Shown: positions 17,301 through 35,262 of the stretch, piece after piece | Layout of the letters: every line of letters starts with the position of its first letter | Position numbering within the stretch: position 1 is the stretch's first letter | From: Nitrospirota bacterium | Lineage (GTDB): Bacteria > UBA2233 | Assembly (NCBI GenBank): GCA_011620345.1 | Contig: WOZJ01000057.1 | Location: 101,246 to 165,245 of the forward strand | Reading direction: 5' to 3' | DNA: 64,000 nucleotides | The notes under the pieces: generated by a model | What the model saw: the letters and a program-made list of their open reading frames with translations, nothing else | What the model was told of the DNA's origin: nothing | The model's database searches: none | Translations under genes and position numbers: made by a program

Positions 17301-17618
17301 ATGTTTCTTGCCGGTTTTGGCAAATACCTTCCGAGCTTGGAGCTGTCCAACGAGGATTTCTCTTACCGGCTGCTCACATCGGACGAATGGATCCGCACAC
17401 GAACGGGCATCCTGAAGGCGGTCTCGAGCAAGATTGGGATTCCTATGGAATCTTTTTGGACCAACCTGGAACGGTATGGGAACACATCGGCCGCATCCAT
17501 ACCGATCGCCATGTCGGAGCTGCAAGAACAAGGCGGGTTGGAAGGGCAAGCAGCATGGGTGTTGAGCCTTGCGTGCGGATCGGGGTTGACGTGGGGAGCC
17601 GCCTTGCTGCGTTCCTAG
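17301..17618 (+). pseudogene. fabH: In-frame internally deleted fabH (KAS III) remnant encoding 105 aa: ~40 N-terminal plus ~65 C-terminal residues
   Basis: The product aligns to FabH residues ~1-40 (TSDEWIRTRTGI) joined directly to the C-terminal ~65 residues (KIGIPMES...YGNTSAASIP...GSGLTWGAALL). The ~215-residue middle carrying catalytic Cys and His is absent. RBS aagggag is intact. Confidence 0.6.
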
Positions 17619-17685
17619 GCTTTCGGCTTTCCGCTGAAGCATCTCGAGGGGTATAATAGATAATTGTGGATACGTAACTGTGCGG

Positions 17686-17761
17686 GGGCCCATAGCTCAA
17701 CAGGCAGAGCAGCCGGCTCATAACCGGTAGGTTCCTGGTTCGACTCCGGGTGGGCCCACCA
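17686..17761 (+). tRNA. tRNA-Met (anticodon CAT), elongator-type or tRNA-Ile(lysidine); encoded CCA
   Basis: Manual fold: acceptor GGGCCCA/TGGGCCC, D-arm GCTC..GAGC, anticodon stem GCCGG/CCGGT with loop CTCATAA, T-arm CCTGG-TTCGACT-CCGGG, discriminator A, CCA. Lacks the three G-C pairs of initiator tRNA. TATAAT sits 30 bp upstream. Confidence 0.8.
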
Positions 17762-17898
17762 AGAGAAAATCGCCTATCGAATGCCATGCATTGTATTTTG
17801 CGTGACCTTGCAAGCCAAATCACACTTTTCGGTCCTTCCAAGCCGATGGGTTTCTTTAAAGCCAACCTAACAAACTTAAGCAAGAAAGGGGGAGGGGA

Positions 17899-18648
17899 TT
17901 GCTGAAGCAAGTCCGTGTCCTTTTTCAGTTGCAAGCGCTCCACAAGGATGAAATGGCTCTTAGGGTGCGCCTAGGTACGCTTCCTAAGAGCATGGAGGAG
18001 TTAAGCGAGCAGCTTCTTTCGGAAAAGGAACGCTTACGCGAGCTTTCCGAGCTTATGGTTTCCCGGCAGCAACGCCAAGCGAGCATCCAAAAAGAAGTGG
18101 TCATCTTTGAGGAAGAGGCCAAGAAGCGGGAAAAACGGCTTTACAACCTCAAAAGTGATGATGCCTTCCGGGTGTTAATGCGCGAGATTCAGAATCTCAA
18201 AAAGGGAAAGAAAATGCTCGAGGAGGAGGCTCTTCAGCTTGAAGAAGACATTCCCAGGTTCTCCGAAGAGATACAGATGCTTACCTCGAGGGTTGAGCAG
18301 CTGGAAAAGGAGTACCACTCCAAGGCCGACTCGGTCGAGAAAGAGTACCAAGGTCTTCTTGCAGAGCTCGAGCGTGCCTCTTCGCAAATCGAACGGCTTA
18401 AGGGGCAGCTGACTCCGGAGTGCGTAAGGCATTATGAGCTGATCCGTTCGAGCTCGTTGCTGCCTATCGTCGCGCCAGTGCGGAATGGCACCTGTTATGG
18501 GTGTTGCATGAACATTCCTCCTCAGCTTTTTAACCGCGTTCAGGCAAACCGGGATGTCATCGTTTGTCCGAGTTGCCACCGCATCCTCTATTTCGACAAG
18601 AATGGGGAGCTTGATTTAGAAAACGAAGAGGTTATGCTATCAATGTAA
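17899..18648 (+). CDS. Zinc-ribbon and coiled-coil protein (COG1579/DUF164-like, C4 zinc ribbon)
   Basis: Long heptad-rich coiled coil followed by CYGCCMNIPPQ...VCPSCHRILYF, a C4 ribbon. TTG start after RBS aagggggagggg. Confidence 0.7.
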   Translation: MLKQVRVLFQLQALHKDEMALRVRLGTLPKSMEELSEQLLSEKERLRELSELMVSRQQRQASIQKEVVIFEEEAKKREKRLYNLKSDDAFRVLMREIQNLKKGKKMLEEEALQLEEDIPRFSEEIQMLTSRVEQLEKEYHSKADSVEKEYQGLLAELERASSQIERLKGQLTPECVRHYELIRSSSLLPIVAPVRNGTCYGCCMNIPPQLFNRVQANRDVIVCPSCHRILYFDKNGELDLENEEVMLSM

Positions 18649-18654
18649 GGCCTT

Positions 18655-19020
18655 GAAGTTAGGGAGGGGGTCGCGAGTTCCACGGAACTCGAGGAAAGTC
18701 CGGACTCCAAAAGGCAGGATGGCCGCTAACCGCGGCTCGGGGTGACCTGAAGGAAAGTGCCACAGAAAAGAAACCGCCCTCGGTGCAAAAGCCTTGGGTA
18801 AGGGTGAAACGGCGAGGTAAGAGCTCACCGGTCCTTCAGCGATGAGGGGCGCATGGCAAACCCCATCCGGAGCAAGACCAAATAGGGAAGGTATGGGATC
18901 GCCTGTTCCGGCCGGTAATTCCGGCGCCTTCCGGGTTAGGTCGCACGCACGTTGAGGCAAAGAGGAATGACCCTCACCCGCCGTTTGGCGGGGACAGAAT
19001 CCGGCTTATCCCTAACTTTA
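18655..19020 (+). ncRNA. rnpB: RNase P RNA (bacterial type A), rnpB
   Basis: Universally conserved elements read on the + strand: GAGGAAAGTCCGGACTCC (P4 5' strand), ACAGAAA, GGGTGAAA, AGGTAAGAGCTCACC and ACAGAATCCGGCTTA (P4 3' strand). P1 pairs GTTAGGGAGG at the 5' end with TCCCTAAC at the 3' end. Confidence 0.8.
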
Positions 19021-19041
19021 AGGCCTTTCGATGTTTCTACG

Positions 19042-19977
19042 ATGAGCTTGCCACTTTTGCCTTCGCCTTTTGCCGCCTACCACATCCCCGTCCTTAAGGA
19101 CGCCGTTGTTTCGTTGGCCTACGGGGCAAAAAACCTTTCCGTCTTGGTGGATGCAACCGTAGGAGACGGGGGGCACCTGGAAGCCCTTTTGGGTCTAGTT
19201 CCGGAAAGTTGCCGCGTACTCGCTCTTGATCAAGACGCAAGCGCGATCGAACGGGCAAAGGCCAGGCTTTCCGAGCATCCCCGCTTTGAGTCCATCTTAT
19301 GGGTCAAGGCGCGGTTTTCCGCTATCCCTGGGCTGCTGAATGAGCTAGGGATGCCCCAAGCGGGGTTTGTCCTGCTCGATCTGGGGGTTTCCAGCCGTCA
19401 GCTGGAGGATCCAGGGCGAGGGTTTAGTTTTCGTCACCCAGGACCGCTGGACATGCGGATGGATCCGTTTATTCATACGCCTGCCAAAGAGCTGGTCAAC
19501 ACGCTTTCCGAGAAAGAGTTGGCGGATATTCTTTGGGGCTTAGGCCAGGAGCCTAGGTCCAGGAGGATCGCCAGGGCTATCATGGAGGCCAGGAGAGTCC
19601 AGCCAATAGAATCCACCTCGGCCCTTGCCCAAATCATCGAGCGTTCCGTCGGGAGAAAGGGCCGTTCATTCAAGATCCATCCGGCGACTCGCTCGTTCAT
19701 GGCGCTTCGGATTGCCGTCAACGACGAGCTTGGAGAGCTGCAAAGAGGGCTCGAGGGGGCCGTTTCCAAGCTCGGACCGTGTGGTAGAATCGTTGTAATC
19801 AGCTACCATTCTCTGGAGGACGGGCTTGTGAAGCGCTTTTTCAAAGCTCGGGACGACGGAAGCATCCTTACCAAAAAACCCGTTCGGCCGGACTTGGAAG
19901 AGGTTCGTGCCAACCCTCGCTCAAGAAGCGCCAAGCTCCGATGTTTCGAAAAAGAAGGCCAGAGTTCGTGCATTTAG
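19042..19977 (+). CDS. rsmH: 16S rRNA (cytosine1402-N4)-methyltransferase RsmH (MraW)
   Basis: HIPVLKDAVV...VDATVGDGGH SAM-MTase signature. The six-frame ORF begins inside rnpB at 18952; the first ATG after the rnpB 3' end, at 19042, is taken as the start. Confidence 0.85.
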   Translation: MSLPLLPSPFAAYHIPVLKDAVVSLAYGAKNLSVLVDATVGDGGHLEALLGLVPESCRVLALDQDASAIERAKARLSEHPRFESILWVKARFSAIPGLLNELGMPQAGFVLLDLGVSSRQLEDPGRGFSFRHPGPLDMRMDPFIHTPAKELVNTLSEKELADILWGLGQEPRSRRIARAIMEARRVQPIESTSALAQIIERSVGRKGRSFKIHPATRSFMALRIAVNDELGELQRGLEGAVSKLGPCGRIVVISYHSLEDGLVKRFFKARDDGSILTKKPVRPDLEEVRANPRSRSAKLRCFEKEGQSSCI

Positions 19978-21488
19978 GCCATCTTCTCGAAACCCTTCGT
20001 CCGTGCCGGGTTTTAGGGGCAGTTGTGCCGGAAACCCTTTTGTCCGGGATTACCGACCACTCCAAACGTGTCCAGCCAGGCTTCGTCTTTGTTGCCCGAA
20101 AAGGAGTCAACGCCCACGGGAAATATTTCGTGGCCGAGGCGTTGGCCAACGGGGCCTCCTGCGTGCTTTTGGAGGATGCCAAGGGTATCGACTCAGGACA
20201 TGCCTGCCTAATCGAGGTCCCTAAGATAGAAGAGCATATTGCTCATCTTGCCTACGGGTTTTACGGGAACCCCCAGCGCCTGCTTAGGCTGATAGGGATT
20301 ACGGGGACGAACGGAAAGACGACGAGCGCGTGTCTGCTCCAGCAGATGCTTTCTAGTATTGGAGAGCCATGCGCTTATGTCGGCACGTTAGGGGCAAGGG
20401 TTGGTATGGATGCGCCCTTTGAGCCGCTCGAGAACACCACCCCAGGAACTTTCGAAATGGCCGAGTGTTTGAACAAGGCCCGCCTTGCTGGAGCACGCGC
20501 GGTCGCAATCGAAGTATCCTCGCACGCTTTGGACCAGGGCAGGGTGGACGGGCTTTGTTTCCAAGCGGGGGTGTTCTTAAACCTCTCGCACGACCACCTT
20601 GATTATCACTGCTCGATGGAGGCCTACTTTCAGGCCAAAGCCCGCTTATTCCAGGTGTATATGGGAAAAGGAGGCTTTGCCGCCCTCAACGTTGACGACC
20701 CGTTTGGGTGTAGGCTTCTTGAAGGTTTTGGGCAGGGCCGGAAGCTTGGTTTTGGATTATGTTCCCAAAAAGGCTTAAGCGCCAAAAACATCGCTTTTTC
20801 TCTCCAAGGGACGAGCTTTGAGCTCGTTCTAGACTCAAAGGCCGTAGGAAAGGCCAGGATACCCCTGGTTGGGCTCCACAATGTTTCTAACGTGCTGGGA
20901 GCTTTGGCCCTAAGTGTGGGGCTCGGGTTTGACCCTAGGGCCCTTGTGGCAGCGCTGGAGCATCTCCCTCAGATCCCGGGCAGGCTTGAGCGCGTGGGAC
21001 CGAGGGACGGGGGCCCAAAGCCGTGCGTGTTCGTCGATTACGCCCATACGCCGGATGCTGTCGAGAGGGTGCTTAAGGCACTTAAGCTCATGAGCCAGGG
21101 TAGGCTCATCGGCGTTCTTGGGTGCGGCGGAGACCGCGACCCGTTTAAGAGGCCCATCATGGGGAAACTTCTTGCGGAAGTTTGCGACGTTGCCGTCCTC
21201 ACGCAGGACAACCCTCGAAGCGAGGATCCGCTCGCAATCCTAATGGCGATGGAAGAAGGCGCAAGAATCTCGGCAAGAAGGTTCGACGGGCAATCCGGGT
21301 ACGTGTGTATCCCTGACCGCAGCGAAGCCATAGAGTTTGCTCTATCTAGGGCTCTCCCAGACGATACCGTGGCAATCCTAGGAAAGGGGCATGAGGCCTA
21401 CCAGATGGTTCGGGGAGTTCGGCACCCATTTGATGACCGCCTTGTGGCAAGGGCGGTTCTCGATGCGTACAGATCCCCAGGCGTATAG
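19941..21488 (+). CDS. murE: UDP-N-acetylmuramoyl-L-alanyl-D-glutamate--2,6-diaminopimelate ligase MurE (DNPR motif, meso-DAP type)
   Basis: Mur ligase ITGTNGKTT P-loop. LTQDNPRSEDP indicates the meso-DAP-adding type. Overlaps the rsmH end; an alternative in-frame GTG start lies at 19968. Confidence 0.9.
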   Translation: MFRKRRPEFVHLGHLLETLRPCRVLGAVVPETLLSGITDHSKRVQPGFVFVARKGVNAHGKYFVAEALANGASCVLLEDAKGIDSGHACLIEVPKIEEHIAHLAYGFYGNPQRLLRLIGITGTNGKTTSACLLQQMLSSIGEPCAYVGTLGARVGMDAPFEPLENTTPGTFEMAECLNKARLAGARAVAIEVSSHALDQGRVDGLCFQAGVFLNLSHDHLDYHCSMEAYFQAKARLFQVYMGKGGFAALNVDDPFGCRLLEGFGQGRKLGFGLCSQKGLSAKNIAFSLQGTSFELVLDSKAVGKARIPLVGLHNVSNVLGALALSVGLGFDPRALVAALEHLPQIPGRLERVGPRDGGPKPCVFVDYAHTPDAVERVLKALKLMSQGRLIGVLGCGGDRDPFKRPIMGKLLAEVCDVAVLTQDNPRSEDPLAILMAMEEGARISARRFDGQSGYVCIPDRSEAIEFALSRALPDDTVAILGKGHEAYQMVRGVRHPFDDRLVARAVLDAYRSPGV

Positions 21489-21495
21489 GCCCAGC

Positions 21496-22917
21496 ATGAT
21501 TCCTTTGGGCGTATCGGAGGTTTTGCAGGCAGTTTCGGGTATTGCCCTGGAAAAAGGTTCAGGCCGGGAGGTTACGGGCGTCGTCGTGCATTCCGGCCTT
21601 TGCAAGGAAGGGGTCTTGTTCGTAGCCCTCGAAGGGGAGCGGACCGACGGCCATGCCTTTCTTGACGAGGCCCTTCAAAAGGGGGCTCTCGGCGTACTGG
21701 GAAGGTTCGATAAGCTTACCCGTTGGATGCGCCATGCCTCCCTGGTCAACGGCTGGATCATTGGGTGCAAAGACCCTCTTTCCGCGCTCGGGGCAATAGC
21801 CAAGGCCGTTCGTTCCAAGTCTAAGGCCCCCATGGTGGCCGTTACGGGTTCGAGTGGCAAAACAACGACGAAAGAAATGGTTGCTTGCGTGCTTGGAGCG
21901 GCCTACAACGTCCACAAAAACCCAGGGAATTACAACAACGCGCTCGGCGTTCCTTTAGCCCTGTTTGAGCTTGAGGCCGCCCACGAGGTCAGCGTGCTCG
22001 AGCTCGGAATGAGCAAAAAGGGGGAAATTGCTTATTTGTCGGATATTGTGGCCCCGGATGTCGGGATTCTCACAAACGTTCAACCTGCACATCTCGAAGG
22101 CCTGGGCGGGCTGGGAGAGGTCAAGGAGGCAAAGGCCGAGCTCCTTAAGGGCATGAACCCCGAAACCGGCATGTTCGTGACCTGCATGGACAACCCATTT
22201 GCCTTGGAGGTTGCGCTTCGGTTTCCAGGGGAGAGGCTTTTGGTCTCCATGCAAACCAAAGCGGACCTCTACCTGAAAGAGGCGCCGATTTGGGATGGGA
22301 AGGCGATGCGTGCCAGGCTCATCGGGCCGGGAGGGGAGATGTTTGAGCTAGCCTTGCCGTTTCCTGGCGAGCATCTTGTTTGCGATGCCATGATTGCCCT
22401 GGCTGTGGGCGCAAGGCTTGGTGTTCCGCTCCATGATGGCTTGCAGAGGCTAAGCGACTTCCAGCTTCCTTCCTTGCGTTTTGAAACGAGAACGCTGCCC
22501 AAGGGGGGGCTTGTCGTGTTCGATGCCTACAACGCAAACCCTGCGTCTATGGAAGCCTCCTTAAAGGCGTTTTGCATGCTGGCCGAAAGCCTAACGAAGG
22601 TTGTCGTATTGGGCGACATGCTCGAGCTCGGAGCCGAAACAGAGCACTATCATCGAAAACTCGGGGCGTTTGTTGCTGGGCTTGGTATTCAAACCCACTG
22701 CATCGGAAACTATGCCACCTGGATTGTCGAGGGCGCCAAGGACTTCGACCCCTCTTGCGAGATTTATGCCTACCAAAAAGATGCGCAGGAAGATCTATCT
22801 ATAGCGCTCTCGAGAATAATTCACCATGGCAGCGCCCTGCTCCTCAAAGGCTCTAGGGCCAACAGGCTGGAAGACTTGTTGGAGTGTATCGAGAACAACC
22901 AACTCTCTAAGGAATAA
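21496..22917 (+). CDS. murF: UDP-N-acetylmuramoyl-tripeptide--D-alanyl-D-alanine ligase MurF
   Basis: Mur ligase P-loop VTGSSGKTTTKEM. Start set at the first ATG after the murE stop. Confidence 0.9.
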   Translation: MIPLGVSEVLQAVSGIALEKGSGREVTGVVVHSGLCKEGVLFVALEGERTDGHAFLDEALQKGALGVLGRFDKLTRWMRHASLVNGWIIGCKDPLSALGAIAKAVRSKSKAPMVAVTGSSGKTTTKEMVACVLGAAYNVHKNPGNYNNALGVPLALFELEAAHEVSVLELGMSKKGEIAYLSDIVAPDVGILTNVQPAHLEGLGGLGEVKEAKAELLKGMNPETGMFVTCMDNPFALEVALRFPGERLLVSMQTKADLYLKEAPIWDGKAMRARLIGPGGEMFELALPFPGEHLVCDAMIALAVGARLGVPLHDGLQRLSDFQLPSLRFETRTLPKGGLVVFDAYNANPASMEASLKAFCMLAESLTKVVVLGDMLELGAETEHYHRKLGAFVAGLGIQTHCIGNYATWIVEGAKDFDPSCEIYAYQKDAQEDLSIALSRIIHHGSALLLKGSRANRLEDLLECIENNQLSKE

Positions 22918-22922
22918 CGCAC

Positions 22923-24002
22923 GTGCTTTTTCACCTGTCGATCCTGCTATCGGATACGATAAGCTTTTTTAATGTTTTTCGCTATATTTCTTTTCGGTCG
23001 ATCTATGCGCTTCTTACTGCCTTTGCTCTAGGACTTGCACTTATGCCGCCCTTTATCCGATACATGCGAAGGCGCCATTTAAGCCAGGCCCTGCGAGAAG
23101 ATGGCCCAAAGCAACACCTCGTGAGCAAGGCCGGAACGCCGACAATGGGAGGGGGCGTGATCCTTACGAGCGCCGTCGTTTCAACCCTACTTTGGGCAAA
23201 CCTCCAAAGTCAGTTTGTTTGGGGCGGGATCGGGACGTTGTTGGTACTCGGAGGGCTTGGGCTTGCTGATGACATATGGAAGGTCAAGGCAAGGAGCTCC
23301 AAAGGCGTACCCGGAAAAGCCAAGCTCCTGATCCAAGGGCTCTGGGGGGCTGGCGTCGGGGTTTGGCTTGCGCAGATGCCGGAGGTCGGCACGCTTCTGC
23401 AGCTTCCTTTTTTTAAGCACGTTCAGCCTCTTTTAGGGGCATCGTTCTTTCTGTTTGCCTCCTTGGTTGTCATGGCAAGCTCCAACGCCGTGAACCTTAC
23501 GGACGGGTTGGACGGGCTTGTGAGCGTTCCGCTCGTTTTTGCCTTCCTGACGTATCTGGGGTTGGTCTACTGTGCGGGCAACAAGCTCCTTGCAGCCTAC
23601 CTAAACGTGACCCACGTACCAGGTTCCGGGGAGGTGTGCATTCTGATCGGCGCGCTCATGGGGGCAATCGTGGCCTTCCTTTGGTACAACACCTATCCGG
23701 CCCAAGTGTTCATGGGAGACGTGGGGTCGCTATCGCTAGGAGGAGCCCTTGGTTACGTGGCGCTCATCGCCAAGCAAGAAGTCCTACTCATCTTGGTCGG
23801 CGGGCTTTTTGTCGTGGAGGCGCTCTCCGTAATCTTTCAGGTGGCTTCGTTCAAGCTTAGAGGAAAACGTATCTTTCGGATGGCTCCACTACATCACCAC
23901 TTTGAGCTTCTTGGCTGGCCGGAACCTAGGGTGATCGTCCGGTTCTGGATTATTTCAGGCATCTTTGCGTTGCTTGCAATCAGCACCCTTAAGCTCCGTT
24001 AG
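22923..24002 (+). CDS. mraY: Phospho-N-acetylmuramoyl-pentapeptide transferase MraY
   Basis: Ten-TM polytopic protein with MraY motifs (NAVNLTDGLDGL, HHHFELLGW). Confidence 0.9.
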   Translation: MLFHLSILLSDTISFFNVFRYISFRSIYALLTAFALGLALMPPFIRYMRRRHLSQALREDGPKQHLVSKAGTPTMGGGVILTSAVVSTLLWANLQSQFVWGGIGTLLVLGGLGLADDIWKVKARSSKGVPGKAKLLIQGLWGAGVGVWLAQMPEVGTLLQLPFFKHVQPLLGASFFLFASLVVMASSNAVNLTDGLDGLVSVPLVFAFLTYLGLVYCAGNKLLAAYLNVTHVPGSGEVCILIGALMGAIVAFLWYNTYPAQVFMGDVGSLSLGGALGYVALIAKQEVLLILVGGLFVVEALSVIFQVASFKLRGKRIFRMAPLHHHFELLGWPEPRVIVRFWIISGIFALLAISTLKLR

Positions 24003-24007
24003 CCCAC

Positions 24008-25381
24008 GTGTACCGCCTACGCTCCTGTCAGCCTGTGGGTATCCTTGGTGCCGGAAAGACTGCAAGGCGTCTTGCGCGCTCTCTTACGAATGAAGGGCTG
24101 GCCGTTTGGGTGTACGAGGAGCACCCAAAGAATGTGCATAGAAGGGCGCTGGAGTACCTTGCCAAGCTTGGCGTCAAGATGTTTGGGCCTTCCAGCGAGG
24201 AAAAGTTCCTCGAGGGGCTTAGCGTTCTCGTCCCTTCTCCCGGCTTTTCGTTCGTGCATCCTGTGTTTGTGCTTGCCCTTAAGCGCGGGATCCCTTGGGT
24301 TGGAGAGCTTGACTTGATCTCTTTGCTTGCAGGCACCCCGCCAAAATTGCTTGCCGTGAGCGGAACAAACGGTAAAACAAGTGTGTGCTCCTGGGTACAG
24401 AATCTTTTGTCCCAGCTTGGACAGCGGGTATTTCGTGCAGGAAATGAAGGCCCGCCGTTTGGCCGCTTTTTGGGAAGGGCTGGATCGTTCCAGGTCGGGG
24501 TATTGGAGACGAGCAGCTTCCAGCTTGCGCAATCTAAGGTCTTTCGACCGAGCGTGGTCCTTTTGACAGAGATCCGGCCGGACCACCTTTCCTGGCATGG
24601 GTCTTTTGAAGCCTACCAGGCCGCCAAGCTCTCCGTCCTCGAGCGGCTTGGGGCCAAAGATACTGCGATCGTACTCAACCCGGATCCAGTCACCGAAAAG
24701 GCCCTGCAAGGGGGCCGGTCGAAGGTTTGGAGTGTAGGCAAGAGAATGTCGTTCGCGTATGGGGGACTTGTATGGGATAAGGAGTGGTTCTACGTGGAGG
24801 CCCCCGGCCTTTCCTTGAGGATCCCACTTCCCAATTCTGAAGATGTGGCGTTCATCCCGCCTGAAAACCTCCTTTTGGCCGGGCTCGCCGCGTTCGAGCT
24901 TTCCGGAGACAAGACGGCGTTTTCTATGCTGGAAGGGCTAAGGCCGTTGACGTACCGCATTTCTTTTGAACGTACGCTCAAAGGGGCGTCCATATTCAAC
25001 GATTCTAAGGCCACGAACGTGGCGAGCGTAGAGCTTGCGCTTAAGCTGCTGCCTACTCCGATCGTATGGATAGGCGGAGGCCTTTCTAAGGGGCTTGATT
25101 TAAGCCCCTTGAAGAGCCTCGTTAGGGAAAAAGTGCGGCTCGCGCTGTTCTTCGGACACGCAAGAGATGCCTTTGCCGATGCACTTGGAGACCTGGTGCC
25201 CTCTGAGCGGTTTAAGACGCTGGAAATGCTTATGCTTAGGCTTGCAGACGTTGTGATGCCCGAAGACCGGGTATTGTTCTCCCCGGGGTGCGCGAGCTTC
25301 GATGCCTTCAAGAGTTTTCGTCATAGGGGGTTTACGTTTTCTAAGCTTCTTGCCTCCTTAAGCCCTACCGAGGTCATCTGA
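24008..25381 (+). CDS. murD: UDP-N-acetylmuramoylalanine--D-glutamate ligase MurD
   Basis: Mur ligase P-loop VSGTNGKTS and a Rossmann-like N-domain. Confidence 0.9.
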   Translation: MYRLRSCQPVGILGAGKTARRLARSLTNEGLAVWVYEEHPKNVHRRALEYLAKLGVKMFGPSSEEKFLEGLSVLVPSPGFSFVHPVFVLALKRGIPWVGELDLISLLAGTPPKLLAVSGTNGKTSVCSWVQNLLSQLGQRVFRAGNEGPPFGRFLGRAGSFQVGVLETSSFQLAQSKVFRPSVVLLTEIRPDHLSWHGSFEAYQAAKLSVLERLGAKDTAIVLNPDPVTEKALQGGRSKVWSVGKRMSFAYGGLVWDKEWFYVEAPGLSLRIPLPNSEDVAFIPPENLLLAGLAAFELSGDKTAFSMLEGLRPLTYRISFERTLKGASIFNDSKATNVASVELALKLLPTPIVWIGGGLSKGLDLSPLKSLVREKVRLALFFGHARDAFADALGDLVPSERFKTLEMLMLRLADVVMPEDRVLFSPGCASFDAFKSFRHRGFTFSKLLASLSPTEVI

Positions 25382-25461
25382 AGGGCTTTTGTGGCATCCC
25401 GGCCCATCTTTACTCTTTCATAGGTATTGCAATTTTTAAATTGAGAGTATAATCACTGTCA

Positions 25462-25487
25462 GTGGGAGGAAGTGGGGAACCGTGGGA
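25462..25487 (+). promoter_or_regulatory. Three direct GTGGG(A/G) repeats at exact 10-bp spacing: putative MraZ operator immediately upstream of mraZ
   Basis: aGTGGGAggaaGTGGGGaaccGTGGGAggtt at 25462-25487, matching the TGGGN-N5 direct-repeat architecture of MraZ binding sites. A TATAAT lies at 25448-25453. Confidence 0.5.
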
Positions 25488-25499
25488 GGTTAAGCCTCG

Positions 25500-25988
25500 A
25501 TGTTCATCGGTCAGTGGACTTACAAGATCGACGAAAAGGGAAGACTTCCCTTTCCCCCGAGGTTCCGTGCTAGCCTTAAAGAAGGGGTTGTGCTCTTGCC
25601 CGGGCCGGAGGCTTCTCTTACGGGATACCCCCTTGAGGTGTTTCTCCGGATGGCTTCAAGGATGACAGAAACCGATGGCTCCTCGAGGGAGGTCCGCTTG
25701 CTAAAGCGGGCGCTTATCGGCCAGGCGGTTCAGCTCGATTTAGACGGCCAGGGAAGGGTCCTCCTGCCTCAGGAATTCCGTGCGTATGCCGAGCTTTCCG
25801 AAAGTGCAGTGATTATAGGGCTATTCCGTTCTTTCGAGATATGGAGCCCGGCGAGGTGGGAGAGCGAGCGTCTCATGGCCCAAGAGCAGCTCCATAACCT
25901 TCTAGAGAAAGGGCCGATCTATGAAGGGGCCCTTTCCAAAGGACTTGCGGACAAGAGGAAAAGCCAGGAATGGGTTCAAGAGGTATAG
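25500..25988 (+). CDS. mraZ: Transcriptional regulator MraZ
   Basis: 162 aa with the two DxxxR-type repeats (DEKGRLPFPPRFR and DGQGRVLLPQEFR) and the C-terminal FEIWSPARW segment. Aligns to E. coli MraZ along its full length. Confidence 0.85.
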   Translation: MFIGQWTYKIDEKGRLPFPPRFRASLKEGVVLLPGPEASLTGYPLEVFLRMASRMTETDGSSREVRLLKRALIGQAVQLDLDGQGRVLLPQEFRAYAELSESAVIIGLFRSFEIWSPARWESERLMAQEQLHNLLEKGPIYEGALSKGLADKRKSQEWVQEV

Positions 25989-27166
25989 ATAGAGCAACCC
26001 TTGCGATTGCCGCGGGGGGGACGGGAGGCCACCTGTTCCCAGGCCTTAGCGTGGCCAGGGCCTGGCTTTTAAGGCACCCCGCCGGGTCTGTCGTTTTTTT
26101 TGGCACCAAAAAAGACGCGTGTTATGTAGAGGGACAAGACCCTCGGTTGCGGTTCGTTGCCGTGAGTATGCAAGGGGTTGCAGGGCGCGGGATTCGGGGC
26201 ATAGCCGGGCTTTTTGTCAAGGGCGTTCCATCCATCCTGGCTATGATTCGAGAGTTCTTGAAAGAGCGGCCTTGCGCGGCCGTTTGTTTTGGCGGGTTTG
26301 TGTCGTTCCCCGTCGGGGCCGCCGCTTGGGTCTTGCGTATCCCCTTATTCCTTCACGAGGCCAACGCAATTCCAGGGATGGCGAACCGCCTCCTGCGCCA
26401 TTGGGCCAAAAAAATGTTCGTAGCCCATGCGGGTATGCTTACAAGCTTGGGGACACGCGCGCAGCTCGTGGGGATTCCCGTACGGGACGGGATAGAGGAC
26501 ACTAAAGATTTCCAGAAGGCCAGCCTAAACTCTAGGCCCGTGCGCATCCTAGTGATCGGCGGATCGCAGGGGGCCTACAGCATGAACCGGATTGTCCTTG
26601 AAAGCCTGGAGCAGCTTTTTCTTAGGCTGGATGCGGAGGTAATCCTTCAATGGGGTAAATGGCCGATGGGTGAGGTGGAGTCATACCTCGAACGCTTCAA
26701 GGATCGCCTATTGGTCTTGCCCTTTATCGAGGATATGGCGCTGACGTACCGTTGGGCGGACATTATCGTTTCACGTTCCGGGGCCTCGACCTTGGCCGAG
26801 CTTGCCTTTGTCGAAAAGCCGGCAATTCTCGTCCCGTTCCCTTTTGCCACGCACAACCACCAGCTCCTCAACGCCCAGGCGGCGGAGCGTGCAGGAGCGG
26901 CAAGGGTTTTGGAAGAAAAAAACCTGAATGTCGACAACCTTGTTGAAGCGCTTGTTGCCCTTGCCCAAGACCCGGCATGTCGGGAGCGTATGGGCCTGGC
27001 GTGGAAAGGTTTGGCCCATCCCAAGGCCGCAGACCGAATGATCGAGACAATTGAGGCTTACATGAAAGGAGTTCATCTGAATGTACCGGCAAAACCTTAC
27101 GCTGTATTTTCTAGGGATAGGCGGAATCGGGATGAGCGGAATTGCCGAGCTTCTTTGGAACCTTAA
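25970..27166 (+). CDS. murG: UDP-N-acetylglucosamine--N-acetylmuramyl-(pentapeptide) pyrophosphoryl-undecaprenol GlcNAc transferase MurG
   Basis: GT28 N-terminal AAGGTGGHLFPGLSVA and the C-terminal domain. Confidence 0.9.
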   Translation: MGSRGIDRATLAIAAGGTGGHLFPGLSVARAWLLRHPAGSVVFFGTKKDACYVEGQDPRLRFVAVSMQGVAGRGIRGIAGLFVKGVPSILAMIREFLKERPCAAVCFGGFVSFPVGAAAWVLRIPLFLHEANAIPGMANRLLRHWAKKMFVAHAGMLTSLGTRAQLVGIPVRDGIEDTKDFQKASLNSRPVRILVIGGSQGAYSMNRIVLESLEQLFLRLDAEVILQWGKWPMGEVESYLERFKDRLLVLPFIEDMALTYRWADIIVSRSGASTLAELAFVEKPAILVPFPFATHNHQLLNAQAAERAGAARVLEEKNLNVDNLVEALVALAQDPACRERMGLAWKGLAHPKAADRMIETIEAYMKGVHLNVPAKPYAVFSRDRRNRDERNCRASLEP

Positions 27167-28481
27167 CTACCGGGTTGTGGGTTCGGACATCGCCGATTCC
27201 GACACGCTTTTGCACCTAAGGAGCCTTGGAATACCCGTCTTCTTGGGGCACGATGCCTCAAGGTTACCTGTGATTGCACCTGACGTTGTCGTGGTTTCTT
27301 CGGCTATCGCTCAAGACAACCCAGAGATTCTTGAAGCAAAAAGGCTAGGGATTCCCGTGATCCCAAGAGCTGTCATGCTTGCCGAACTGATGCGGCTGAA
27401 GTATGGCATTGCAGTATCCGGGGCCCATGGCAAGACGACGACGACCTCGATGGTCGCCCACGTTTTGCTCGAGGCGGGAATGGATCCAACCGTCGTTCTC
27501 GGTGGGCGCTTGAAGGAAACCCGCAGGAACGCATCGCTGGGAAAAGGGTCTTTCATCGTGGTAGAGGCTGACGAATCTGACAGTTCCTTCTTATGGTTGG
27601 CTCCTAGCATTGCAGTCGTGACGAACCTTGACAACGAGCATTTGAACAGCTACAGGGACAGCTTTCATGTCCTCCAAGAAGCCTTTCGGGTGTTTTTAGA
27701 GAAAGTCCCGTTTTACGGGCTTTGCGTCTACTGCGCCGACGACCCGAACGTCCTGGCCGTTGCCGAGCGGCTCGACAGAAGAAAGGTAGGATACGGGCTT
27801 TCGCAGGCATCTCAAGTTCGTGCGTGGGGGGTTGAGTCACGGCCTTTTGGGTGCTTCGCCCAACTTGAGGCGTTTGGTGAAAGTTTGGGCGAGCTTGTCC
27901 TTAAGGTTCCAGGTGTCCATAACTTAAAAAATGCCCTTGCTGCCGTGGCGGTAGGGCTTGAGCTAAACATTCCTTACCCTACGATTGCCCGCGCTCTCGC
28001 TTCGTTTGAGGGGATCGAACGGAGGTTTGAGGTCAGGCTCAGCAAGCCTGGGCTTACTGTCATCGAGGACTATGCCCACCATCCAACGGAAATCTTGGCA
28101 ACGCTCCAGGCGTTCAGGGCCGAATTCCCGGAGGTTCGGAGGCGTGTCGTTTTTCAGCCTCACCGCTTTAGCAGGGTTTATCGCCTCCAGGAACAATTTA
28201 CCGACTGTTTTGCCCCTGACACCGACGAGCTCATCCTTTTGCCGACCTACGGAGCGGGTGAACCGTATGACTCCGAGGGCGACGGCCACAGGCTTTTTGA
28301 GCGTATCTCGGCCGGAGGAAAGACCCCCTGCCGGTTCGCCTCCACGTTTGATGAAGCCATCGGCCTTCTGCTCGAAGGCATCACCGAGCCTCAGGCGATC
28401 ATCTTCTTGGGTGCGGGAGACATTCACAAGCTTGCGGCTGGGTTTACCGATGCCCTTTCTTGCGCATCGTTCGTGGGGTGA
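27081..28481 (+). CDS. murC: UDP-N-acetylmuramate--L-alanine ligase MurC
   Basis: N-terminal YFLGIGGIGMSGIAELL and P-loop VSGAHGKTTTTSM. RBS aaggag. Overlaps the murG 3' end by ~86 nt. Confidence 0.9.
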   Translation: MYRQNLTLYFLGIGGIGMSGIAELLWNLNYRVVGSDIADSDTLLHLRSLGIPVFLGHDASRLPVIAPDVVVVSSAIAQDNPEILEAKRLGIPVIPRAVMLAELMRLKYGIAVSGAHGKTTTTSMVAHVLLEAGMDPTVVLGGRLKETRRNASLGKGSFIVVEADESDSSFLWLAPSIAVVTNLDNEHLNSYRDSFHVLQEAFRVFLEKVPFYGLCVYCADDPNVLAVAERLDRRKVGYGLSQASQVRAWGVESRPFGCFAQLEAFGESLGELVLKVPGVHNLKNALAAVAVGLELNIPYPTIARALASFEGIERRFEVRLSKPGLTVIEDYAHHPTEILATLQAFRAEFPEVRRRVVFQPHRFSRVYRLQEQFTDCFAPDTDELILLPTYGAGEPYDSEGDGHRLFERISAGGKTPCRFASTFDEAIGLLLEGITEPQAIIFLGAGDIHKLAAGFTDALSCASFVG

Positions 28482-28487
28482 AATATT

Positions 28488-29384
28488 GTGGACGGCCTTC
28501 GCTTGTTGCCCCCAAAGCCGCTTGGCGAATGTACGAGCCTAAGAGTAGGCGGGACGCCGGAATACCTTGCCGAGGTGTTCCATGAAGACGGCTTGGGGGA
28601 GCTTGCCTTGCTCAATAGGTCCTACCGGGTCCTTGGACGTGGCAGCAACCTTCTTGTGGACGACGGGAAGCTTCCTTTTGGGGTAGTTCGTCTTGCTGGA
28701 GCGTTGACCAAGGTTTGGCCGGTTGTGGGCGGCGAAGGAGATGCCGTTTTCTTGGAGGCGTTTTCCGGCGCGTCCTTGAGGGCAGTCGCGAAGATGGCGC
28801 TCGATATAGGAGGAGGAGGGCTTGAGTTCGGCATTACAATTCCAGGAAGCCTTGGCGGGGCGCTTAGGATGAATGCTGGGGCCCATGGCCAGGAAATTGG
28901 CCCGTTGGTCGAGTCGCTCACCGTTTTTGACCCAAAAAAAGGGGTTTTTCGAGAGCTAAGAAAACCGGAGTTTTCTTTCGGCTACCGGTCGCTTTCCGTG
29001 GGGGGTTCTAGCGATGAATCGCCATTTTTGATCAAGGCCCTGCTTCTTTTAACCAGGCGTGACCCAAAAGACATCCGTACGACGATGGACGCGTTCCTTT
29101 CGAGGCGAAAAGCGACCCAACCTTCTGGGGTGTATTCGTGTGGCTGCGTGTTCAAAAATCCGCCCCCACCTATTCCCCCCGCGGGGAGGCTCCTTGATTT
29201 ATCCGGCCTCAAGGGGGCTTGCATAGGGGGGGCGATGGTATCAAAGGCTCACGCAAATTTTTTCGTCAATGTAGGCAATGCCAGCGCATCGGACTTCTTT
29301 CGTTTGATCAATATGGCCAGGACCCGGGTGCTAAAAGACCACGGGATTGAGCTTTCGCTTGAGGTAGAGGTATGGAAGGGTTAG
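28488..29384 (+). CDS. murB: UDP-N-acetylenolpyruvoylglucosamine reductase MurB
   Basis: FAD-binding domain and MurB C-terminal domain pattern. GTG start after the murC stop. Confidence 0.85.
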   Translation: MDGLRLLPPKPLGECTSLRVGGTPEYLAEVFHEDGLGELALLNRSYRVLGRGSNLLVDDGKLPFGVVRLAGALTKVWPVVGGEGDAVFLEAFSGASLRAVAKMALDIGGGGLEFGITIPGSLGGALRMNAGAHGQEIGPLVESLTVFDPKKGVFRELRKPEFSFGYRSLSVGGSSDESPFLIKALLLLTRRDPKDIRTTMDAFLSRRKATQPSGVYSCGCVFKNPPPPIPPAGRLLDLSGLKGACIGGAMVSKAHANFFVNVGNASASDFFRLINMARTRVLKDHGIELSLEVEVWKG

Positions 29385-30331
29385 ACGGTATCCGGGTGGT
29401 TGTCCTCATGGGGGGCAAATCCAAAGAAAGGGAGGTCTCGATCAGTACGGGCCAAGCGGTGATCGAGGCCTGCCGATCGCTCGGGGCCAAAGAATTGGTG
29501 ACGTTCGACCCGGCAGCTGACCCGTTAGAGCGGCTCATCTGCCTAAGGCCCTTTGTCGCCTTCAACGCGCTGCACGGCAGGTTCGGGGAGGACGGTTGCA
29601 TGCAAGGGTTTTTGGAGGTCCTTAACGTTCCCTACACAGGCCCTGGGGTGCTTGCTTGCGCATTGTCCATGAACAAGTGGCTTACGAAGAAAGTTCTTTT
29701 GGCCAACGGCCTTCCGGTTCCTCGTGCAGTCTACCTTGCGGCAGGCCAAGGGGAAGATTTGAGGGGAGTTCTTCAGGTGGCCGAGCTCGGGTTTCCTTTG
29801 GTCGTCAAACCAAACGAGGAAGGTTCTAGCTTGGGGATCACACTTGCAAGGGCCGAGCCCGAGCTTCAAGGTGGGCTCGATATGGCCAGAGCCTTTGATG
29901 GGGGCGTTCTCATCGAGGAGTACATCGAGGGGGCGGAAGTTCAGGTGGCCGTTCTCGAGGGGAAGGTCTTAGGGAGCATCGAGATTCTGCCCGAAGGAGG
30001 GTTTTACGATTACCGTGCAAAGTACACTCCCGGCGCATCAAGGCACGTCATTCCTCCAAAGATAGAGCCTTCTATACTCCAAGAGGTCGAGCGTGTCGCG
30101 CTCGAAACTCACAAGGCGCTTTGCCTTGAGCCTTTGAGCCGCGTCGATATTCGCGTCCACCCGAAGAATGGCCCGTTTATTCTTGAGGCAAACGCCTTGC
30201 CTGGGATGACGCCGACAAGCCTCGTCCCGGAAATTGCTCGGTATGCTGGCATTCCCTTTGTACAGCTTGTTTGGTCGTTGATTCGAAACGCCTTAAAGCG
30301 CTCGAATGTCGGGCAATTTTCTTATTCCTAA
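29372..30331 (+). CDS. ddl: D-alanine--D-alanine ligase Ddl
   Basis: ATP-grasp. N-terminal VVVLMGGKSKEREVSISTG and the C-terminal ATP-grasp loop. Confidence 0.9.
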   Translation: MEGLDGIRVVVLMGGKSKEREVSISTGQAVIEACRSLGAKELVTFDPAADPLERLICLRPFVAFNALHGRFGEDGCMQGFLEVLNVPYTGPGVLACALSMNKWLTKKVLLANGLPVPRAVYLAAGQGEDLRGVLQVAELGFPLVVKPNEEGSSLGITLARAEPELQGGLDMARAFDGGVLIEEYIEGAEVQVAVLEGKVLGSIEILPEGGFYDYRAKYTPGASRHVIPPKIEPSILQEVERVALETHKALCLEPLSRVDIRVHPKNGPFILEANALPGMTPTSLVPEIARYAGIPFVQLVWSLIRNALKRSNVGQFSYS

Positions 30332-30339
30332 AGGGAGCG

Positions 30340-31587
30340 ATGCACCGTAAGCCGAGGAGTATCGTTGGGATCGATATCGGGACGACCAAGGTCGTTACGC
30401 TTATCGCCGAGGAAAGGGGTGAAACATTAGAGCTATGCGGTGTTGGCCATGTTCCTTCTCAAGGGCTTAAGAAGGGAATGGTTGTAGACATCGAGAAAGC
30501 GAGCCATGCCTTAAGGCAATCGATCTCCCGGGCCGAAGAAATGGCAGGCGTTCGGGTGGAAGGGGCATGGGCGAGCGTCGGAGGAAGCCATATCCGCGTT
30601 CAGCCGTACAAAACGGCGCTTTCGCTGGGAGGCAGGGCTGTGCTCAGAGAGGATATCTCGCAGGTCGTTGACGTTGCTCAGGAGATTCTATTGGACGAGG
30701 GCAGGGAAGTGCTTCACGTTCTTCCTAAGGGGTTCTGGATCGACGGTCATGGGGGGATCTTGAACCCCCTAGGGATGATTGGCATGCAGCTTGAGCTTGA
30801 TGCAACCGTTGTTACGGCCCAAATGGGACCGCTTCGAAACATCCAGAGACTCCTGGAGAGCGCTGGGGTTGAACCCCTTGGCTTGGTGCTCCAACCCTTA
30901 GCGAGCGCAGAGGCGGTGCTGACGCAAGAAGAGAAAGATCTTGGAGTCGTATTGGTGGATATCGGCGGGGGGACTTCGGATGTGATGGTTTACGCCGATG
31001 GTGCCCCTCGTTACGTTGGGGTCGTTGGCTTGGGGGGGGCGCACATTACGCGCGACATAGCAGCGGCGTTCAAAATCGGCCTGCAAGAAGCCGAGCGACT
31101 CAAAAGGGAGTATGGGTGTACCAGCGAACGGTTCCTTAAGGAAGCCGAGAACCAGGAAGAAATAGAGCTCGTTCTCGCTTACGACAAAGATAGGCGGCCC
31201 GTCAGAATCGAAAAGCTATGTCTCGTCGTTGAGGCTAGGGTTCATGAAATTCTGGAGCTTGTACAAAGGGAGATCGGCAAAGGAGGAGTCGATCAAGGCC
31301 AATACTCAGAGCTCGTCCTTTGTGGCGGGTCGAGCGTTCTAAGGGGGTTTAAAGAGGCCGCTTCTGAAGTGTTTGGCCTGCCTTCACGGATCGGAATCCC
31401 GGCCTACCGCCTAAAAGGCCCTTTTGAGCTCGTGGCGAAACCTGGGTTTGCCACCGGAGTCGGCCTTTTAGCCTATGCCAGGCTGAACGGCGACCAAGCT
31501 CCCGAAGCCAAAGCGCCGCTAGGCTGGATAGCCAGGGTAAAACAACTCCTAAAAGAGGTGAGGAAGCTATGGGGAAGAACGGACTAG
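30340..31587 (+). CDS. ftsA: Cell division protein FtsA
   Basis: Actin-like ATPase [15 protein letters not shown] aagggag 3 nt upstream of the ATG at 30340. Begins directly after ddl with no ftsQ between them. Confidence 0.85.
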
Positions 31588-32696
31588 GGACGTTGGACGT
31601 CAAAGCCCGCATCAAAGTTATCGGAGTCGGCGGTGGCGGCGGAAACGCCGTGAACAATATGCTTGATTCTGGCGTTGAGGGGGTTGAGTTTATCGTCTCC
31701 AATACGGACTATCAAGTGCTCCTCCAGAGTAAGGCGAGCGTGACGATCCAGCTGGGGACGTCCGTTACGAAAGGACTTGGGGCCGGGGCCAACCCGGAAG
31801 TAGGTCGTCAGGCTGCGCTCGAGTCCAAAGGGGAGATTGAGCGCGCCCTCATGGGTGCCGATATGGTGTTTGTTACGGCTGGAATGGGCGGGGGAACGGG
31901 AACTGGAGGAGCGCCGATTGTTGCGGCCATCGCAAAGAACCTTGGCATTCTAACCGTCGGGGTTGTAACGAAACCCTTCTTGTTCGAAGGTAAACGCAGA
32001 ATGCGCCTTGCAGAGCAAGGAATCAGGGAGCTCAAAGAGTGCGTGGATACGCTCATAACAATTCCGAACCAAAAGCTTTTGACGATCGCGTCGAAGGAAA
32101 CGCGCCTTCTGGACGCCTTTAAGAGGGCCGATGATGTCCTTAAGGAAGCCGTCAAGGGGATTTCTGATTTGATCGTCCAGCCTGGGCTGATCAACCTAGA
32201 CTTTGCAGACGTCCGAACGGTCATGTCCGAAACGGGCCTGGCTATTATGGGCGTGGGTATAGCCGAAGGAGATGGCCGGGCTATTAATGCCGCACGGATG
32301 GCCGTATCGAGCAACTTACTCGAGGACGGCAGGATTGGCGGGGCACGCGGAATTTTAATCAACATCACAGGCGGCGCGTCGCTTACGATGTATGAAATCA
32401 ACGAAGCGGCAACGCTCATCCAAGAGGAGGCCCACGAAGATGCCAACATCATCTTTGGGGCCGTGATCGACGAAAGCATGGGAGAGCAGGTTCGGATCAC
32501 CGTGATCGCTACAGGCTTCGGGGAAAAGGATGAGAAAGTTTATCCTTTCGTCTCTGAGCCCGTTCGAATTAAGCGCGAACCGGAGCCCGCTTCGGAGGTG
32601 CGCCAGCCTTCCCGAATCTTCAACCTCGAGAAAGATGACGGTGAAGAGCTTGAAGACCTCGATATTCCGACATTCCTAAGGCGCCAGCTGGAGTAA
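31569..32696 (+). CDS. ftsZ: Cell division GTPase FtsZ
   Basis: Tubulin signature [14 protein letters not shown]7 loop and an acidic C-terminal tail with the conserved C-terminal peptide DIPTFLRRQ. Confidence 0.95.
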
Positions 32697-32709
32697 GCCC
32701 TTCGGTGGC

Positions 32710-33591
32710 CTACTGGAGGAGCTCGGCCAACGGGAAATCCTTGAGCTTCAAAACTGTCGTGGAGCCGCGAATGGGAAGCTGGAACAGGCTAGAATCGAAG
32801 CCAGGAGGAACCCTAAATGAGCTGATCCAAAGATGCATACGAACGTGCCGGTTAGCCATGTAGAGTTTTGCGCTTCTAGCGATGGAGAACGAACCTACGT
32901 TGAAGTGCTCTTTGTAGCGTGCAAAGACGAGCACATCTCCCTTGGTGTTCCGGATTTCCCCTTCTTCGCACGGTTCTTGTCCGCAGTTTCCAACGAACCA
33001 TTCCACCCTTCTCGATTTCCAAGCCATGCGGACGCCTGAGCGCGTTGCGGAAATTTCCGGCAGGCCTTGCGGAGCCAATCCTGCCCATCCGATAAGCAGC
33101 CTTGAAAAAGTGAGCCATGTTAAGCCTTCAAGGGTTGTGCCCTGAAGCGAAAGATCCGATGCCGGCCCAACATAGGCCCTGTCTTTGGATGGGTCGAAAA
33201 AGAGAACGTTTGCATTTCTGATAAGAAGACTTGCAAGCGTAAGCCCAAACGGATCTAGAAAATCCATCCGAAACATACCGGGAGGCTGAGAAAAGAGCTC
33301 GACGTGGAAGCGCTCTTTTTTCTTAGTGAATCCTTTCGCCACTTCGATTTCGAACGACCCCCTTGCCTGCCAAGGGAACTCTTGTTGCTGCCTGGCGAAG
33401 AACTTTTGAAGCATCCTGTCTAAGTTTTGCTTCGCCGGCTTATGTAGCGCGCATCCCCCTGCGCAGAGCGCAAGGACCAGTCCGAAGATGAGCCAGTACC
33501 TTAAAGTGAGGACTGATTGAGGATGCTCCGGATCTTTTCCTCGATAGCCTCCGGGGATTCCGGCTTGTTTTCGAGCGCCTTCTTGTAACAT
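32710..33591 (-). CDS. Putative lipoprotein with a LolA/LolB-like (DUF4292-like) fold (start uncertain)
   Basis: Hydrophobic leader ending LALCAGGCA (possible lipobox) followed by a ~230 aa beta-rich domain. Family assignment is weak. Confidence 0.4.
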   Translation of the reverse strand: MLQEGARKQAGIPGGYRGKDPEHPQSVLTLRYWLIFGLVLALCAGGCALHKPAKQNLDRMLQKFFARQQQEFPWQARGSFEIEVAKGFTKKKERFHVELFSQPPGMFRMDFLDPFGLTLASLLIRNANVLFFDPSKDRAYVGPASDLSLQGTTLEGLTWLTFSRLLIGWAGLAPQGLPEISATRSGVRMAWKSRRVEWFVGNCGQEPCEEGEIRNTKGDVLVFARYKEHFNVGSFSIARSAKLYMANRHVRMHLWISSFRVPPGFDSSLFQLPIRGSTTVLKLKDFPLAELLQ

Positions 33592-35252: not shown

Positions 35253-35262
35253 CGCGAACCCG

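Follow-up and report, generated by a model that had tools for sequence, protein, structure and literature searches.

Which genes does MraZ control when its own gene, mraZ, stands in the middle of a cluster of division and cell wall (dcw) genes rather than at its head? This question is raised by a 64,000-nucleotide stretch of DNA from Nitrospirota bacterium (GenBank assembly GCA_011620345.1, contig WOZJ01000057.1, positions 101,246 to 165,245 of the forward strand), hereafter referred to as the window; coordinates below count from its first nucleotide. The canonical dcw cluster of the E. coli type has the order mraZ-rsmH-ftsL-ftsI-murE-murF-mraY-murD-ftsW-murG-murC-ddl-ftsQ-ftsA-ftsZ, and the mraZ-rsmH pair at its head is, to our knowledge, nearly universal. 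The most notable feature of the window is that this pair is broken, with what appears to be a complete MraZ module placed mid-cluster.

Gene order of the cluster and its conservation

We assigned genes with NCBIfam and Pfam, and RNA genes with Rfam and ARAGORN, and refined start codons afterwards (Table 1). From 18655 to 32696, the + strand carries rnpB, the block rsmH-murE-murF-mraY-murD, a gap of 118 nt, and the block mraZ-murG-murC-murB-ddl-ftsA-ftsZ. The full-length, above-threshold match to RF00010 identifies rnpB as the gene of a type A RNase P RNA, and RsmH scores above the equivalog cutoff of TIGR00006. As in other dcw clusters, the mur, mra and fts genes are encoded on a single strand in the conserved relative order, with ftsA-ftsZ last. 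The locus departs from that model at the head, where rsmH follows rnpB and mraZ is found five genes downstream, and at the usual positions of ftsL-ftsI, ftsW and ftsQ, from which these genes are missing: neighbouring genes either overlap or are separated by no more than 118 nt. The compacted cluster comprises the genes for cytoplasmic and lipid-linked peptidoglycan precursors plus ftsA and ftsZ. Since FtsZ has a conserved C-terminal peptide and FtsA a membrane helix, the divisome appears ordinary in its cytoplasmic core. An earlier reading of the window (the original prediction) had proposed this gene order, with rnpB directly upstream of rsmH and mraZ in the ftsW slot; the Rfam, NCBIfam and Pfam matches bore out the order and every structural feature. 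The spacing between rnpB and rsmH is 18 nt, and mraZ is located between murD and murG.

For comparison, we used 79 loci obtained by a MurD scan of species-representative genomes, mostly from Acidobacteriota and also from Bdellovibrionota, Bacteroidota, Thermodesulfobacteriota, Cloacimonadota, Brevibacillus and others. Among the loci in which both genes of a pair were found, the rsmH-murE distance was 2.1–5.2 kb and the murD-murG distance 1.0–1.6 kb in most cases, and the open reading frames (ORFs) sampled from the comparator gaps were identified by Pfam as FtsW, FtsI (PBP dimer and transpeptidase domains) and FtsQ (POTRA). Wherever mraZ was detected in the comparators, it was found only directly upstream of rsmH.

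An order as unusual as that of the window could in principle reflect chimeric junctions at ~19.0 kb and ~25.4 kb, the more so as the nearby fabH carries a 654-bp deletion relative to the closest genome. That genome, ‘Nitrospirae bacterium UBA2233’, which was the sole close match among the species-representative genomes, has a contig that is collinear with window positions 17407–35364 in one alignment at 93.8% identity. According to a taxonomy review, UBA2233 is a GTDB placeholder phylum (‘Candidatus Cutipiota’) with two genomes of ~1.8 Mb; beyond this review, we found no publication in the literature on the biology of phylum UBA2233/Cutipiota. About ten further contigs, from other sequencing runs and independent assembly, carry the same junctions. 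The junctions recur in the UBA2233 assembly, in Logan assemblies of seven runs and in one Joint Genome Institute (JGI) metagenome. The relatives' contigs contain the Zn-ribbon gene described below, rnpB, rsmH-murE and murD-mraZ-murG, as well as ddl-ftsA-ftsZ where the contig extends that far. Reading frames overlap across the junctions, and the G+C content is flat (0.53–0.60) across both. Because independent assemblies share the junctions, we regard the artefact explanation as refuted. Both the comparison of synteny in related taxa and the search for misassembly at the two junctions, which the original prediction had called for, thus turned out in favour of the arrangement. This dcw variant is real and has been conserved within a rare lineage.

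Within this lineage, the cluster proteins are 58–97% identical between the window and its relatives, going down to 58–82% in the contigs that share the order. MraZ, at 96, 89, 74 and 70% identity, is better conserved than the products of the flanking murD and murG. A protein search with MraZ returned matches of 99, 89, 74 and 71% identity, followed by a sharp drop to 46%, and one with RsmH returned 98 to 64% in the relatives and then about 50% in many phyla.

Some local irregularities were also seen. The fabH gene (17301–17618, + strand) is a 105-aa in-frame remnant, whose residues 1–39 and 37–106 match residues 1–39 and 255–324 of the relatives' FabH; from this pattern, the catalytic core has been deleted. 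At this place, the contig of UBA2233 is 654 bp longer and has an intact 328-aa ORF, and the ends of the deletion share the repeat GCATCC. Either the repeat mediated a real deletion or the assembly collapsed locally. In the JGI contig L092 (3300018672), the Zn-ribbon gene, rsmH and murD were called as shortened or split genes, which look like frameshifts from sequencing or assembly errors and not like biology.

Predicted transcription of the two halves

The 118-nt gap between murD and mraZ contains a candidate internal promoter resembling Pmra, followed by a predicted MraZ operator (Table 1). The pattern TTGCAA-15 nt-TATAAT has its sole exact match in the window at this site. All five lineage members have identical hexamers and an identical spacer length, with hardly any variation in the spacer sequence. 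In the five-member alignment, the promoter and the boxes together are almost invariant, while the segment from the murD stop codon to the -35 element is not alignable. The operator consists of three GTGG(G/T) boxes with a 10-bp period, the third of which overlaps the ribosome-binding site, and the boxes are conserved in all relatives. The triple-box pattern occurs at one site in the window and in none of 100 shuffled sequences; no second MraZ operator was found upstream of rnpB or rsmH in the window. Comparators with a triple box have it close to the locus's upstream end, before a head-of-cluster mraZ where one was detected. Published MraZ boxes are GTG(G/T) units separated by six nucleotides, usually three in number, box 1 including the start of transcription (PMC12957436), and the layout in the window matches this experimentally defined operator: mraZ has repeated boxes of the GTG(G/T) type, spaced by 10 bp, at its own predicted promoter.

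The protein itself has the features expected of MraZ. It contains two tandem MraZ (SpoVT/AbrB-like) domains (Pfam PF02381) and matches solved MraZ chains over residues 1–136 with E = 1e-11. Residues K13, R15 and R86, which contact bases in a cryo-EM structure (M. genitalium numbering; PMC12957436), are present in the contexts ...IDEK13GR15L... and ...LDGQGR86V.... The module comprising promoter, three-box operator, ribosome-binding site and gene is canonical in every respect except its position. The proposal that mraZ has its own promoter has accordingly gained strength, the conserved -35/-10 pair now being joined by three putative canonical MraZ boxes.

At the other end, rsmH is preceded by a gene encoding a Zn_ribbon_9 protein and by rnpB. 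In loci L081 and L085, the Zn-ribbon gene directly precedes rnpB, and in L091 it precedes rsmH; rnpB is found in the same position in L001, L081 and L085 with 274–276 bits, and the order and spacing of Zn-ribbon gene, rnpB and rsmH are the same in the relatives. Since the gaps between these three genes are 6 and 18 nt, they offer no space for a promoter, and rsmH-murD are most likely read from a promoter further upstream. A TATAAT hexamer ahead of tRNA-Met likely marks the start of this upstream transcription unit; no good -35 element was seen for it. No conserved terminator was found after rnpB. A small hairpin at 19089–19102 was considered as a terminator and rejected, as L081 lacks it and it falls within the conserved coding sequence of rsmH. 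The 3' end of rnpB is spanned by the motif TTTAAGGCCTTT (19014–19035), which includes the palindrome AAGGCCTT and does not vary among four lineage members; it might serve as a signal for cutting RNase P RNA out of the rsmH transcript during processing. A Zn_ribbon_9 gene is also found upstream of rnpB, with an RNase H gene between them, on the unrelated Dehalococcoidia-type contig L088 (3199–4721, - strand), where mraZ, at a distance of ~4 kb, is on the strand opposite to the pair. The pairing of the two genes may represent an old conserved unit.

We consider it likely that an MraZ-autoregulated internal promoter feeds murG-ftsZ and that rsmH-murD are read through from the upstream unit. MraZ would bind the boxes at the expected transcription start and repress its own internal promoter, which would be the MraZ-dependent input to the seven genes mraZ-ftsZ only, that is, to the late lipid II steps and FtsA/FtsZ. 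As the frames from mraZ to ftsZ overlap or nearly touch and are translationally coupled, the promoter would set the MraZ input for all of them. The early genes, rsmH to murD, would lack such an input. They would belong to a single transcript that starts from the promoter upstream of tRNA-Met and includes tRNA-Met, the Zn-ribbon gene and rnpB, and from which the tRNA and the RNase P RNA would be cut out. We found no conserved hairpin with a following U-run in the stretch from murD to the internal promoter. In the absence of a terminator there, read-through from murD into mraZ-ftsZ is likely, so that the two halves are probably not fully independent; some transcripts would cross the junction, and bound MraZ might hinder them. 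Of the original proposal of two separate units, the part concerning an internal promoter thus appears to hold, while the separation is probably incomplete for want of a conserved terminator after murD.

Several points weigh against this interpretation. The promoter, the binding of MraZ, the co-transcription with rnpB and the read-through are all deduced from sequence. Promoter spacers are usually 16–18 nt long; a spacer of 15 nt is short for a sigma-70 promoter, and this is why a generic promoter scan did not call the site. MraZ scored 91.6 bits against TIGR00242, narrowly below the equivalog cutoff of 98.35. The location of FtsW, FtsI, FtsL and FtsQ is judged from ~80 kb of a roughly 1.8-Mb genome, and the probable placement of the window in phylum UBA2233 derives from 94% identity and the GTDB naming convention.

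Missing membrane genes and the origin of the mraZ cassette

The original prediction had also held that ftsL, ftsI, ftsW and ftsQ are absent from the cluster, which leaves no room for them, and both the junction spacings and the searches agree with it. Since rsmH overlaps murE, there is no ftsL or ftsI between them, and the 8-nt gap between ddl and ftsA likewise leaves no ftsQ. Pfam scans detected no shape, elongation, division and sporulation (SEDS), class B penicillin-binding protein (bPBP), POTRA/FtsQ or FtsL families among the 60 long ORFs of the window. With profiles of our own, derived from the comparators' genes for FtsW, FtsI, FtsL and FtsQ (79 loci), we also searched all six-frame ORFs of at least 30 aa in the 64-kb window and four relatives' loci. 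The best match there had only E = 0.33, and no overlooked FtsL- or FtsQ-like ORF came to light; the same profiles recover 42–76 ORFs in the comparator loci. Nor were division genes found in ~16 kb of extra flank (~9 kb left, ~7 kb right), which brought the total view to ~80 kb around the cluster, ~4% of the roughly 1.8-Mb genome.

The surroundings contain other genes. Three genes (32710–35802, - strand) converge on ftsZ, the stop codons being 13 nt apart, and are kept in all relatives. Their products are an unannotated lipoprotein with the signal LCAGGC and without a Pfam match, a TPR protein of 583 aa, and DciA. The first of them, a 293-aa ORF (32710–33591, - strand), was considered as a diverged FtsQ and rejected, having the lipoprotein signal LCAGGC and no POTRA match. 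Of the two flanks, one contains a secretin and a type II secretion system (T2SS) ATPase, the other PlsY and TRAP transporter genes. The former lie left of the window (L093, 737–4637) as a GspD-type secretin and a T2SSE ATPase beside dnaK, which suggests an outer membrane.

The missing SEDS/bPBP pair and FtsQLB would most probably be encoded elsewhere in the genome, given that there are precedents for genes that leave the cluster yet stay in the genome and that the remaining machinery is ordinary. A true loss would mean that FtsW, FtsI and FtsQLB are found nowhere in the lineage and that the septum is made by FtsZ and FtsA with a different synthase, either RodA-PBP2 or a class A PBP. It would explain by one co-loss, simpler than three separate relocations, why four functionally linked membrane genes are missing jointly, and it would suit the small genomes (1.8–1.89 Mb) and the lack of all these genes within the ~80 kb around the cluster. 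There is also a precedent in Clostridioides difficile, in which canonical FtsW/FtsI can be dispensable for vegetative division (PMC10693644). We nevertheless find a true loss improbable: the view covers a small part (~4%) of the genome, absences in other phyla are usually described as from the cluster only, as for ftsW in Thermodesulfobacteria (PMC8871954), and the complete lipid II pathway, the canonical FtsZ tail and the FtsA membrane helix suggest an ordinary divisome. If the four genes were absent genome-wide, the organism would be a walled, FtsZ-using bacterium without a canonical septal synthase, a more surprising outcome.

The history of mraZ can likewise be read in more than one way. 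The original prediction spoke of a relocated mraZ. That mraZ is off the head position stands, and the data fit a movement of the cassette within the genome with separate removal of the four membrane genes; acquisition is also conceivable, since MraZ is unusually similar to its Dehalococcoidia-type counterparts. In that case, the mraZ at the head would have been lost, and a self-contained module of promoter, operator and mraZ would have entered between murD and murG from a Dehalococcoidia-like (Chloroflexota) donor, perhaps in place of ftsW. MraZ is 42–46% identical (0.71–0.83 bits per residue) to the proteins of the Dehalococcoidia-type and Thermomicrobiales loci L088–L090 and at most 33% identical (0.52 bits per residue) to comparator MraZ proteins. 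It matches P0005 with 134 bits, and either of the two matches any other group with at most 115 bits. For RsmH, FtsA, FtsZ and MraY, these Chloroflexota loci are no nearer than the comparators, and RsmH has no phylum affinity, being about 50% identical to its counterparts in many phyla. As MraZ alone is Dehalococcoidia-like and the neighbouring dcw proteins are not, the cassette may have been transferred horizontally. Moreover, L088 and L089 show the same layout of a -10 element, ~8 nt, three boxes and a short leader. On the other hand, an operator layout of this kind goes with MraZ in general and does not point to a particular donor, the protein is short, the margin is modest, the G+C content at mraZ is not anomalous, and the contrast is biased in that the comparators were picked by MurD similarity and are mostly Acidobacteriota. 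We therefore hold acquisition to be a tentative possibility, somewhat doubtful on balance. An acquired cassette, with the same tentativeness, would work identically and differ in origin alone, leaving the proposed MraZ-dependent input to murG-ftsZ as it is. The mraZ promoters of the Chloroflexota type in L088 and L089 have TTGACA and a spacer of ~17 nt.

Also improbable, in our view, is a combination of these possibilities, in which the lineage lost FtsW, FtsI, FtsL and FtsQ, keeps FtsZ, FtsA and the full lipid II pathway, uses a non-canonical septal synthase, and had its MraZ, possibly on a Chloroflexota-like cassette, rewired to murG-ftsZ only. The reading we prefer remains an internal, MraZ-controlled promoter in a cluster whose membrane divisome genes would reside elsewhere.

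Table 1. Features of the cluster and its upstream region (window positions) and the junctions between genes
Feature	Position or size	Strand	Details
Candidate -10 TATAAT	17652–17657	+	~28 nt ahead of tRNA-Met; identical in four lineage members, flanks diverge
tRNA-Met (CAU)	17686–17761	+	ARAGORN, Rfam; same place in L001, L081, L085
Zn_ribbon_9 (COG1579-like) gene	17899–18648	+	Pfam PF02591, E = 2e-13; stop 6 nt before rnpB
rnpB, bacterial type A RNase P RNA	18655–19023	+	Rfam RF00010, 277.2 bits (gathering score 100), model positions 1–367 of 367
rsmH (16S rRNA m4C1402 methyltransferase)	19042–19977	+	TIGR00006, 267.5 bits (cutoff 154.3); Pfam PF01795
murE	19941–21488	+	TIGR01085, 442.6 bits; overlaps rsmH end
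murF	21496–22917	+	TIGR01143, 350.6 bits; start codon refined
mraY	22923–24002	+	TIGR00445, 351.8 bits
murD	24008–25381	+	TIGR01087, 286.9 bits
Candidate internal promoter (Pmra-like)	25427–25453	+	-35 TTGCAA, 15-nt A/T-rich spacer, -10 TATAAT; read from sequence
-35 TTGCAA	25427–25432		
15-nt A/T-rich spacer	25433–25447		
-10 TATAAT	25448–25453		
8 nt between -10 and box 1	25454–25461		
Predicted MraZ operator	25462–25486	+	Boxes GTGGGAGGAA, GTGGGGAACC and GTGGGAGG from 25462, 25472 and 25482
mraZ ATG	25500		
mraZ (162 aa)	25500–25988	+	Pfam PF02381, 92.1 bits; occupies ftsW slot of other phyla
murG	25970–27166	+	TIGR01133, 264 bits; Pfam GT28 N- and C-terminal domains
murC	27132–28481	+	TIGR01082, 452.8 bits; start codon refined
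murB	28488–29384	+	NF010480, 246.6 bits; TIGR00179, 157.9 bits
ddl	29372–30331	+	NF002378, 333.3 bits
ftsA	30340–31587	+	Pfam FtsA and SHS2_FTSA; C-terminal amphipathic helix
ftsZ	31569–32696	+	Pfam Tubulin and FtsZ_C; canonical C-terminal peptide
Junction rnpB to rsmH ATG (19042)	18 nt		
Junction rsmH/murE	overlap		Same in L081, L085, L091
Junction murE to murF	7 nt		
Junction murF to mraY	5 nt		
Junction mraY to murD	5 nt		
Junction murD to mraZ	118 nt		
Junction mraZ/murG	overlap, 19 nt		
Junction murG/murC	overlap		
Junction murC to murB	6 nt		
Junction murB/ddl	overlap		
Junction ddl to ftsA ATG (30340)	8 nt		
Junction ftsA/ftsZ	overlap		

Significance and relation to known systems

The finding is a well-supported description: the dcw cluster itself is well known, and the arrangement is new. 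It would represent a natural rearrangement in which an intact, conserved MraZ module heads the distal genes murG to ftsZ only, with rsmH and the early mur genes apparently tied instead to a housekeeping RNA operon, and the lineage helps to separate which targets matter for MraZ.

Compared with the canonical cluster, the one described here is alike in occupying one strand, in its relative gene order with ftsA-ftsZ last, in its tightly coupled frames, and in a predicted MraZ-type promoter with three GTGG(G/T) boxes. It differs in that mraZ and its promoter follow murD and do not precede rsmH, that ftsL, ftsI, ftsW and ftsQ are missing and murB is present, and that rnpB takes the usual place of mraZ.

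Surveys in the literature rank the dcw cluster with the most stable in bacteria and note that particular genes are missing from it in some phyla, such as ftsW in Thermodesulfobacteria (PMC8871954). The lineage-wide lack of membrane divisome genes is shared with such reduced clusters, including those of the Chloroflexota-type loci L088, L089 and L090; there, however, mraZ stands at the head beside rsmH, whereas here the pair is split by five genes (5.5 kb). The clusters in L088 and L089 consist of mraZ-rsmH-ftsA-ftsZ. The Thermomicrobiales contig L090 (10001–14780) carries mraZ-rsmH-Mur ligase-mraY-murD, with rsmH directly abutting the Mur ligase gene and no ftsL or ftsI between them, an independent example of ftsL and ftsI missing from the cluster.

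A structured RNA encoded directly upstream of the first dcw gene on the same strand, which would need excision, recalls the leader small RNA UpsM of Rhodobacter sphaeroides, a non-coding RNA transcribed together with the dcw cluster that follows it (PMC5089854). Unlike UpsM, the RNA in the window is the housekeeping RNase P RNA and not a dedicated leader small RNA, and its presumed co-transcription with rsmH is taken from the 18-nt spacing only.

With the MraZ autoregulation systems of Mycoplasma genitalium, E. coli and B. subtilis (PMC12957436; bioRxiv 10.1101/2022.02.09.479790), the window shares residues K13, R15 and R86 and the position of mraZ as the first gene after the operator. In contrast to these systems, the predicted operator would head the distal genes, murG to ftsZ, only. 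The main MraZ target reported in B. subtilis, ftsL (PMC12957436; bioRxiv 10.1101/2022.02.09.479790), is not downstream of the operator here.

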